From positions 1 to 22,131 of the forward strand of contig JBHLSH010000068.1 in assembly GCA_048881705.1 (NCBI GenBank): 22,131 bases of DNA. Direction: 5' to 3'. The position numbers and the translations under genes are program-made. The notes under the pieces are model-generated. The model was given only the letters and a program-made list of their open reading frames with translations, did not search any database and was not told where the DNA came from. Source of the DNA: Candidatus Heimdallarchaeota archaeon (GTDB lineage: Archaea; Asgardarchaeota; Heimdallarchaeia; Hodarchaeales; Hodarchaeaceae). Each line of letters starts with the position of its first letter. The first letter of the stretch is position 1. This document shows, one piece after another, positions 11,420 through 11,674 of the stretch.

Positions 11420-11674
11420 ATGGCTACAGTCGTTATAGAAGATGCAACAGGTCTTTCAAAGAAGGTTATCCAAAGCGAAATAGAGGAAGATAGTTCAGTC
11501 CGAATCATCCGGACTCTGGTGAAAAAGGAACTCGATTTAGGGAAACAACCTTTTCAGGTGTTTTTCGGGAAAAGGCAAGACAAGAACTTTAAGGAGCTTA
11601 ATGAAAGAACTATAGATGGATTTAAGGAGCTTAAAAAGGATAATATAGACCTAGTATTGCGTATCCGAAGAAAA
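11420..11674 (+). other. Putative ubiquitin-like (beta-grasp) domain at the N-terminus of Top6A
   Basis: MATVVIEDATGLSKKVIQSEIEEDSSVRIIRTLVKKELDLGKQPFQVFFGKR...ERTIDGF...[10 protein letters not shown] aligns by eye with ubiquitin [67 protein letters not shown]. Shared elements: TG turn, KxIxxExE strand, amphipathic helix, F-GK, RT, LVLRxR. No terminal GG. Confidence 0.65.

Follow-up and report, generated by a model that had tools for sequence, protein, structure and literature searches.

A predicted ubiquitin-like domain at the N-terminus of topoisomerase VI subunit A in Heimdallarchaeia that encode a giant subunit B

The stretch of DNA analysed here (the window) comprises 22,131 nt of contig JBHLSH010000068.1 from a member of the Hodarchaeales, recorded as Candidatus Heimdallarchaeota archaeon (GenBank assembly GCA_048881705.1). 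It includes the genes for both subunits of topoisomerase VI (Topo VI). The subject of this report is the N-terminus of the DNA-cleaving subunit A (Top6A), which is predicted to form a ubiquitin-like domain (UBL), together with the giant subunit B (Top6B) encoded directly upstream. Five genes, gyrB, gyrA, top6B, top6A and an open reading frame (ORF) for 225 aa, are found in the same orientation (positions 1-13538, + strand) with gaps of 12-40 nt, the gap between top6B and top6A being 12 nt. As these genes are co-oriented and closely spaced, one operon appears to encode topoisomerases of both type IIA and type IIB. The features are given in Table 1.

Table 1. Genes and features of the topoisomerase region of the window (residue numbers are those of Top6A)
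Feature	Position (nt)	Strand	Basis or remark
gyrB	1-1917	+	ORF
gyrA	1939-4422	+	ORF
Giant Top6B, 2,338 aa	4391-11407	+	Counted from the first TTG; ATG at 4439 is the likely start
Shine-Dalgarno-like AGGAGGT	11406-11412	+	7 nt 5' of the Top6A ATG; overlaps the Top6B TAG stop (11405-11407)
Top6A, 466 aa	11420-12820	+	ORF translation
Predicted ubiquitin-family beta-grasp domain, residues 1-86	11420-11677	+	AlphaFold2, Foldseek, VIA-align, profile, transitive Pfam link
Conserved amphipathic helix, residues 89-100	11684-11719	+	AlphaFold2; alignment with short-form Top6A
Conserved extended segment DLPVSILKVDNV, residues 104-115	11729-11764	+	Alignments; P106 invariant
Top6A N-terminal core helix, residues 117-137	11768-11830	+	AlphaFold2 helix; phmmer to 2zbk_A
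5Y-CAP / TP6A_N, residues 184-242	11969-12145	+	PF04406, 65 bits (cut-off 26)
Toprim domain, residues 290-460	12287-12799	+	PF21180, 216.6 bits (cut-off 24.1)
225-aa ORF	12861-13538	+	Directly downstream of top6A

All of the features that define a Top6A are present, namely a 5Y-CAP domain with the catalytic Tyr, a Toprim domain with its acidic residues and a top6B gene as partner. The catalytic Tyr is Y210 (nt 12047-12049), which lies in an FYR motif aligned to YYR in the S. shibatae protein. Both F209 and Y210 are invariant, as are the Toprim acidic residues E295 and D347/D349 (DADPYG). In its 5Y-CAP and Toprim core, in these residues and in the location of its gene directly after top6B, the window Top6A resembles the canonical proteins from S. 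shibatae (2zbk_A), M. jannaschii (1d3y_A) and M. mazei (2q2e_A). However, the phmmer alignment with 2zbk_A begins at residue 119, equivalent to residue 12 of that chain, and approximately 118 N-terminal residues are therefore extra. These comprise the UBL, an additional helix and a linker that is conserved. Relative to canonical systems, the Top6B partner is also 4-8 times the normal size.

The N-terminal peptide of Top6A is MATVVIEDATGLSK. A preliminary description of the locus, made from the sequence, had concluded from the Shine-Dalgarno site that this extension is translated, and further observations agree. A stop is found in the Top6A frame 4 codons 5' of the ATG, no further ATG occurs in frame before codon 162, which is within the conserved core, and no alternative start codon appears plausible. 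Comparable purine-rich motifs likewise precede the start codons of orthologous top6A genes. The ratio of non-synonymous to synonymous substitution rates (omega), calculated for eight close pairs by the Nei-Gojobori method, was 0.06-0.32 for the UBL, compared with 0.03-0.19 for residues 87-118 and, in the core, 0.005-0.04. The UBL is clearly under purifying selection, although constraint on the core of the enzyme is stronger.

The structure of the N-terminal 135 residues was predicted with AlphaFold2 (AF2) using an alignment of 32 rows (A1) that included orthologues from 29 related genomes and two database homologues. The mean predicted local distance difference test score (pLDDT) was 78, with residue blocks between 1 and 90 at 74-89. 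The model has strands at residues 2-8, 16-21, 45-51, 58-59 and 78-84, and helices at residues 27-37 and 65-73, giving a beta-beta-alpha-beta-beta-alpha-beta topology. Beyond the UBL it contains a helix (89-100), a low-confidence stretch and the core helix, which starts at 117. The same secondary structure elements were repeated in the UBL of a full-length AF2 model.

Among the matches listed by VIA-align, all 50 were beta-grasp domains of the PB1, UBL, ubiquitin, RA or FERM-F0 types, and model residues 1-87 were covered. The best was the PB1 domain of PKC-iota (1wmh_A; Z 12.0, root mean square deviation (rmsd) 1.8 A, 79/83 residues), followed by other PB1 domains (Z 9.5-11.5), the UBLs of USP proteins and TBCE (approximately 9.3) and ubiquitin itself (8.5-8.8). 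The top Foldseek matches in the Protein Data Bank (PDB) included the PB1 domains of NBR1 and p67phox, the UBLs of TBCE and USP15, ubiquitin, the UBX domain of p47, SUMO-3 and NEDD8, and the only exceptions to the ubiquitin superfold among them were two stray rows with rmsd of 11-35 A. As the structural matches across residues 1-87 of the model belong to the ubiquitin superfold, the predicted beta-grasp fold is secure. The preliminary description had proposed this fold from an alignment with ubiquitin made by eye, and to that extent the alignment stands. However, its register at the end of the domain, where LVLRIRRK (78-85) was paired with LVLRLRGG, is probably out by about 2 residues. HMMER pairs R83 of Top6A with R72 of ubiquitin, and this is consistent with the 7-residue strand at 78-84.

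The UBL of the window Top6A is too divergent to be recognized directly by the Pfam models. No match to a member of the ubiquitin clan was found at E values up to 1 using residues 1-130 or 1-135 of the window Top6A, and a scan of the genome with PF00240 did not detect the UBL. With residues 1-118 as the query, exhaustive searching by phmmer yielded no more than 6 clusters, each made up of short fragments of the Top6A type, and provided no link to other families. However, when a profile built from A1 was used to search all PDB sequences, only ubiquitin and NEDD8 were retrieved, with profile positions 14-86 matched to ubiquitin residues 6-72. The E values for mono-ubiquitin were 0.014-0.2, and the better values obtained for polyubiquitin merely sum the repeats.

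A firmer connection is provided by the orthologue from Borrarchaeum (L087:1779-2078). Its N-terminus scores 31.2 bits with PF00240 (cut-off 25.4) and 33.3 bits with the Rad60-SLD model PF11976 (cut-off 23.8), and this is the only UBL found above the Pfam ubiquitin thresholds. When compared using hhalign with a UBL-only family profile (A3), it aligned over 94 columns with 94% probability (E 1.5e-7). A second orthologue gave E values of approximately 1e-3 for Ubiquitin_2 and ubiquitin. This transitive link, through the Pfam scores, the hhalign result and the basal place of the Borrarchaeum protein in the tree described below, leads us to assign the UBL, at the level of sequence, to the ubiquitin family as a divergent member. 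Direct hhalign comparison of A3 with the ubiquitin encoded by the same genome gave a probability of 23%, and 1.5% with a second UBL. The ubiquitin in question has 80 aa and ends in ...TTGGVDD, and its gene is directly upstream of one for a 343-aa E1-like (ThiF-type) protein (G000 contig C15, L031:351-1722, minus strand). Two further UBL proteins ending in ...STAG are encoded on contig C57 of this genome.

A di-glycine is not found at the end of the UBL in any of the 32 aligned orthologues. Instead, the sequence IRRKIDL continues via the conserved hydrophobic residues I86 and L88 into the helix at 89-100. For these two reasons, the UBL would be unable to act as a conjugatable modifier and is best described as integral, as had been supposed. 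A loop containing F-P-R between beta3 and beta4 marks the UBX-type Cdc48 binders. At this location, the window has GKRQDKNF and the consensus is xKKxKxF, neither of which includes F-P-R, and the structural match to the p47 UBX domain is one among many matches to beta-grasp domains. The UBL can be compared with integral (type-2) UBLs such as those of USP4/USP15, TBCE/TBCB and the SUMO-like domains of Rad60, with which it shares the beta-grasp, the lack of a di-glycine and a permanent fusion (Z 8.5-9.4). It differs from them in being fused to a subunit of an archaeal type IIB topoisomerase, in being uniformly basic and, in the window, in its divergence from the Pfam models.

Between the UBL and the core, the preliminary description had seen a plain linker of about 25 aa. 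This is not the case, as the region contains both the conserved helix at 89-100 and a conserved DLPVSxLKVDNV motif at 104-115. Residues 101-115 have pLDDT <50 in the full-length monomer model, and the segment at 104-115 is probably ordered only in the holoenzyme. The core helix that follows corresponds to the start of S. shibatae Top6A (2zbk), the region in contact with the Top6B transducer. The helix at 89-100 is also present in Asgard Top6A that do not have a UBL. In the Asgard Top6A of 387-415 aa, this helix and an LPxxI motif are retained and a short Lys/Arg-rich start is found in place of the UBL.

An additional N-terminal helix, common to Asgard and eukaryal TopoVIA and adjoining the TopoVIB-binding helix, has been described (Brinkmeier et al. 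2022, PMC9665070). That helix was predicted to pack on the Toprim domain, and such helices were proposed to be interfaces for partners (PMC9665070). The helix at 89-100 is probably the same element, and the UBL would then have been added N-terminal to a pre-existing helix. The window Top6A belongs to the conserved Asgard lineage of Asgard/eukaryal-type TopoVIA (PMC9665070; Feng & Wu 2025, PMC12680538) and keeps the helix that precedes the Top6B-binding helix, but differs in carrying the UBL, an addition restricted to one group within this lineage.

To determine how widespread the UBL is, 400 genomes of the phylum were surveyed using a UBL-only profile. In the Heimdallarchaeia, it was found in six families, here numbered f1 (19/21 genomes), f2 (2/2), f3 (29/31), f5 (12/12), f6 (1/1) and f7 (3/3). 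In these families, every match was in a frame of approximately 470 aa and always on Top6A. A seventh family, f4, produced matches at chance level only. Outside the class, one genome (G308) carries the UBL. The groups that include carriers are Hodarchaeota/Hodarchaeales, Heimdallarchaeum and other Heimdallarchaeota, Kariarchaeota and Borrarchaeum. The genome that includes the window contains no further copy of the UBL detectable with the profile. Weak matches to small ORFs in G203, G091, G198 and G212 were considered as possible free UBLs but were rejected, as they are Lys/Ile-rich chance matches. In a collection of 5.8 billion proteins, all 31 matches were Top6A of 463-474 aa. These are named either 'hypothetical protein' or 'SPO11' and the N-terminal domain is recorded in none of them, leaving this part of Top6A unlabelled in public annotation.

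A quick IQ-TREE phylogeny was constructed from 80 Top6A sequences using only core columns, with the UBL columns removed. The tree was unrooted and was made without eukaryotic Top6A or Spo11. All 65 carriers fell on one side of a single branch (Shimodaira-Hasegawa-like approximate likelihood ratio test (SH-aLRT) support 99), and therefore one change of state accounts for the distribution. Borrarchaeum was basal among the carriers, and the Njord, Sif/Borr short forms and f4 sequences were outside. The closest record to the window is L067 (JBHLRO010000004.1), with a Top6A that is 96% identical. It is labelled 'Candidatus Thorarchaeota archaeon' but nests within the Hodarchaeota group on the Top6A tree, with which the name seems at odds. 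Similarly, Hermodarchaeota is the label of one record of the Hodarchaeales type.

The Top6B encoded in the window has a GHKL and transducer core at approximately residues 70-540, followed by about 1,800 aa of helix-hairpin-helix (HhH)-type repeats. The Pfam matches are Topo-VIb_trans (175.9 bits), HATPase_c, HHH_5, RAD51D_N and RNA_pol_A_CTD. The preliminary description had suggested a survey for co-occurrence of the UBL with a giant Top6B, and in the survey of Asgard Top6A and Top6B the two were found together. In the carrier genomes in which the frame does not run off its contig, Top6B is 2,194-4,305 aa overall, with 2,312-2,346 aa in f1, approximately 3,470-3,590 aa in f5, 3,573 aa in f7, 4,244 aa in f6 and 4,140-4,305 aa in f3. 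Top6B of the Heimdallarchaeum type reach 4,140-4,305 aa, and some of these have Lys/Thr-rich low-complexity tails. Between families, collinear conservation of the repeat arm extends only to approximately residue 700, and within the genus the arms are 54-60% identical.

The forms lacking a UBL are paired with smaller partners. In f4, Top6B is approximately 1,110-1,155 aa and is accompanied by a Top6A of 400-417 aa with a basic tail, and the Sif/Borr short-form Top6A are located behind a Top6B of 564-567 aa. The f4 genomes (G025, G031, G033 and others; L131, L134-L137, L139) contain two Topo VI pairs, and the second pair is canonical (approximately 500-520 aa and 376-390 aa), with a Top6A approximately 30% identical to that of the window. 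In the Borrarchaeum genomes outside the class (G308 contig C30, approximately 11.9-24.1 kb; L087, L088, L138), the UBL-Top6A is accompanied by a Top6B frame of 2,286 aa, which directly precedes it in G308. A short UBL-less Top6A is also found approximately 10 kb from the UBL-Top6A, and a canonical 564-aa Top6B is on another contig. As G308 again pairs the UBL with a giant Top6B despite the canonical Top6B and short Top6A in the same genome, the two travel together.

The surface of the UBL is also distinctive. In all 32 sequences the domain is basic, with an isoelectric point (pI) of 9.0-10.3 (9.5 in the window) and a net charge of +2 to +11. K/R52, K55, R83 and R84 are nearly invariant, and L12 and F48 are conserved hydrophobic residues that HMMER aligns to L8 and I44 of ubiquitin. 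These six positions may form one exposed conserved face. The net charge of the Top6B arm is negative in 4/5 giant forms examined (-31 in the window).

We tentatively suggest, at somewhat short of an even chance, that the UBL is a fixed, non-conjugatable interaction module of the ubiquitin family located near the junction of the A and B subunits, which has evolved in concert with the giant arm of Top6B and contributes to organizing or anchoring it. We infer its position in the holoenzyme, the surface it uses and its partner as follows. The UBL is followed immediately by the extra helix of the Asgard/eukaryote type and by the helix expected, from comparison with homologous Topo VI structures that have been solved, to hold the Top6B transducer. 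This placement would bring it near the A-B junction in the A2B2 enzyme, where the HhH-repeat arm begins. The putative face made up of the L12/F48 pair, flanked by K/R52, K55, R83 and R84, could then engage a partner within the holoenzyme, for which some part of the mildly acidic arm of Top6B is the most likely candidate, and this contact would organize or anchor the arm near the DNA gate. When UBL residues 1-88 (A3) and Top6B residues 500-1100 (A4) were predicted as a complex, an ipSAE (interface score derived from predicted aligned errors) of 0.00 was obtained in both runs, which were made without controls and speak neither for nor against such a contact.

Several observations weigh against this proposal. 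In the monomer model, the UBL is on a low-confidence tether (101-115) and the geometry between the domains cannot be read. As the carriers are related, the pairing of the UBL with giant Top6B represents one or two evolutionary events and is statistically weak. The Top6B arm of Heimdallarchaeum has a net charge of +25, and the arm is not acidic in every lineage. Finally, the argument for a conserved face depends on a hidden Markov model alignment to ubiquitin and not on coordinates.

The basic surface could also be read as a DNA-contact module, in which the beta-grasp binds DNA flanking the gate segment and takes the place of the Lys/Arg-rich tail of UBL-less Asgard Top6A. The conserved basic residues and uniformly high pI would be explained, the UBL is tethered to the subunit that cleaves DNA, and the short forms in Njord, f4 and Sif do have basic tails (MSTSKKKHPRE...) ahead of the same helix. 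However, ubiquitin-family domains are mainly protein-binding modules, and DNA binding alone leaves unexplained why the UBL should be restricted to enzymes with a giant Top6B. We consider this explanation unlikely, though it deserves some weight.

The preliminary description had favoured a different role, namely that the UBL is a pre-installed tag or handle by which Cdc48, PAN/proteasome or a ubiquitin receptor would be recruited to covalently trapped Top6A for extraction or degradation. Eukaryotes process trapped Top1, Top2 and Spo11 adducts via ubiquitin/SUMO, p97 and the proteasome. The resemblance lies in the presence of a ubiquitin-fold element on the subunit that forms the covalent bond with DNA, but the eukaryotic modifier is added in trans once damage has occurred, whereas the UBL is genetically fused and constantly present. 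The genome does encode a ubiquitin system (the 80-aa ubiquitin ending in GGVDD beside the E1-like gene), L12 and F48 preserve the hydrophobic positions L8 and I44 of ubiquitin, and 4/32 orthologues match UN_NPL4, a Cdc48-binding UBL, though weakly and below threshold (best E 0.015). Against this, there is no positive evidence for a receptor, and the beta3-beta4 loop does not have the F-P-R of the UBX type. Moreover, a handle of this kind should serve any Top6A, yet the UBL tracks only the form with a giant Top6B, and an essential enzyme bearing a constitutive degron would have to keep it masked. We therefore regard recruitment to trapped complexes as quite unlikely and less probable than had been supposed. 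The secondary idea in that description, a docking site within the enzyme, fits better because of the strict linkage to giant Top6B, the uniformly basic surface and the place beside the A-B junction helix.

A broader version of the handle proposal would make the fused UBL a cis-acting forerunner of ubiquitin-dependent handling of topoisomerase and Spo11 adducts, read by Cdc48/proteasome or by a regulatory partner, with eukaryotes later exchanging both the handle and the giant Top6B arm for trans-acting modifiers and accessory proteins. We consider this improbable.

The structural searches raise the possibility of PB1-like oligomerization, in which the UBL would pair head-to-tail with itself or with another beta-grasp and link Topo VI complexes into higher-order assemblies. 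The closest structures are indeed PB1 domains (PKC-iota 1wmh_A, NBR1 2bkf and p62; Z 9.5-12.0), and the UBL has a true second helix (residues 65-73), as found in PB1. However, the PB1 types are defined by an acidic OPCA motif (type A) or an invariant lysine in beta1 (type B), and neither is present. The OPCA-type motif is absent, the beta3-beta4/alpha2 region being basic (K/R52, K55), and the position of the beta1 lysine is not conserved, with E/D in f1 and K/R in f3 and f5. The Pfam PB1 model PF00564 matches only 1/32 orthologues, at 15.9 bits (cut-off 23.6), the genome has no detectable second UBL copy with which to pair, and the sequence link leads to ubiquitin and Rad60-SLD. To judge from these motifs, the UBL does not qualify functionally as a PB1 domain, and assembly of this kind is very improbable.

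That the UBL results from wrong assignment of the start codon, or is a relic in decay, is hardly credible since the upstream stop and the location of the next ATG leave little room for another start, the domain is conserved in approximately 65 species-level genomes and omega is well below 1.

In agreement with the preliminary description, in which no UBL-Top6A fusion was known, we found none in the published literature. Searches of full texts found neither a Top6A with a UBL nor an HhH-extended Top6B described, and the word ubiquitin does not occur in the main texts of PMC9665070 and PMC12680538.

Spo11, the initiator of meiotic recombination, is descended from Topo VI-A, and no archaea are placed nearer to eukaryotes than the Heimdallarchaeia, which include the Hodarchaeales. 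In this lineage both Topo VI subunits have been remodelled together, the cutting subunit by the UBL and the ATPase subunit by thousands of residues of HhH repeats, so type IIB topoisomerases gained eukaryote-style accessory modules already within the archaea. The window provides a clonable system in which to examine the role of an integral UBL on a DNA-cleaving enzyme, and it bears on whether recognition of topoisomerases through the ubiquitin fold predates eukaryotes.

The 225-aa ORF downstream of top6A has no Pfam match. It was considered as a class-wide partner and rejected because its adjacency to top6A is restricted to the genus, where, with the exception of a near-identical relative, the proteins are 39-48% identical. 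In the ESM Atlas, the named clusters closest to it belong to kinase-like families (Phage_T7_kinase, YrbL-PhoP_reg and Kinase-PolyVal) and are leads only. Beyond it, a 635-aa protein (14438-16345, - strand) contains two acetyl-CoA hydrolase/transferase domains and a C-terminal GNAT acetyltransferase domain. Convergent on the end of the operon is a gene for a Ras/Roc/Arf-type small GTPase of 188 aa (13554-14120, - strand; PF00071, 107.5 bits), which is a typical Asgard signature protein.

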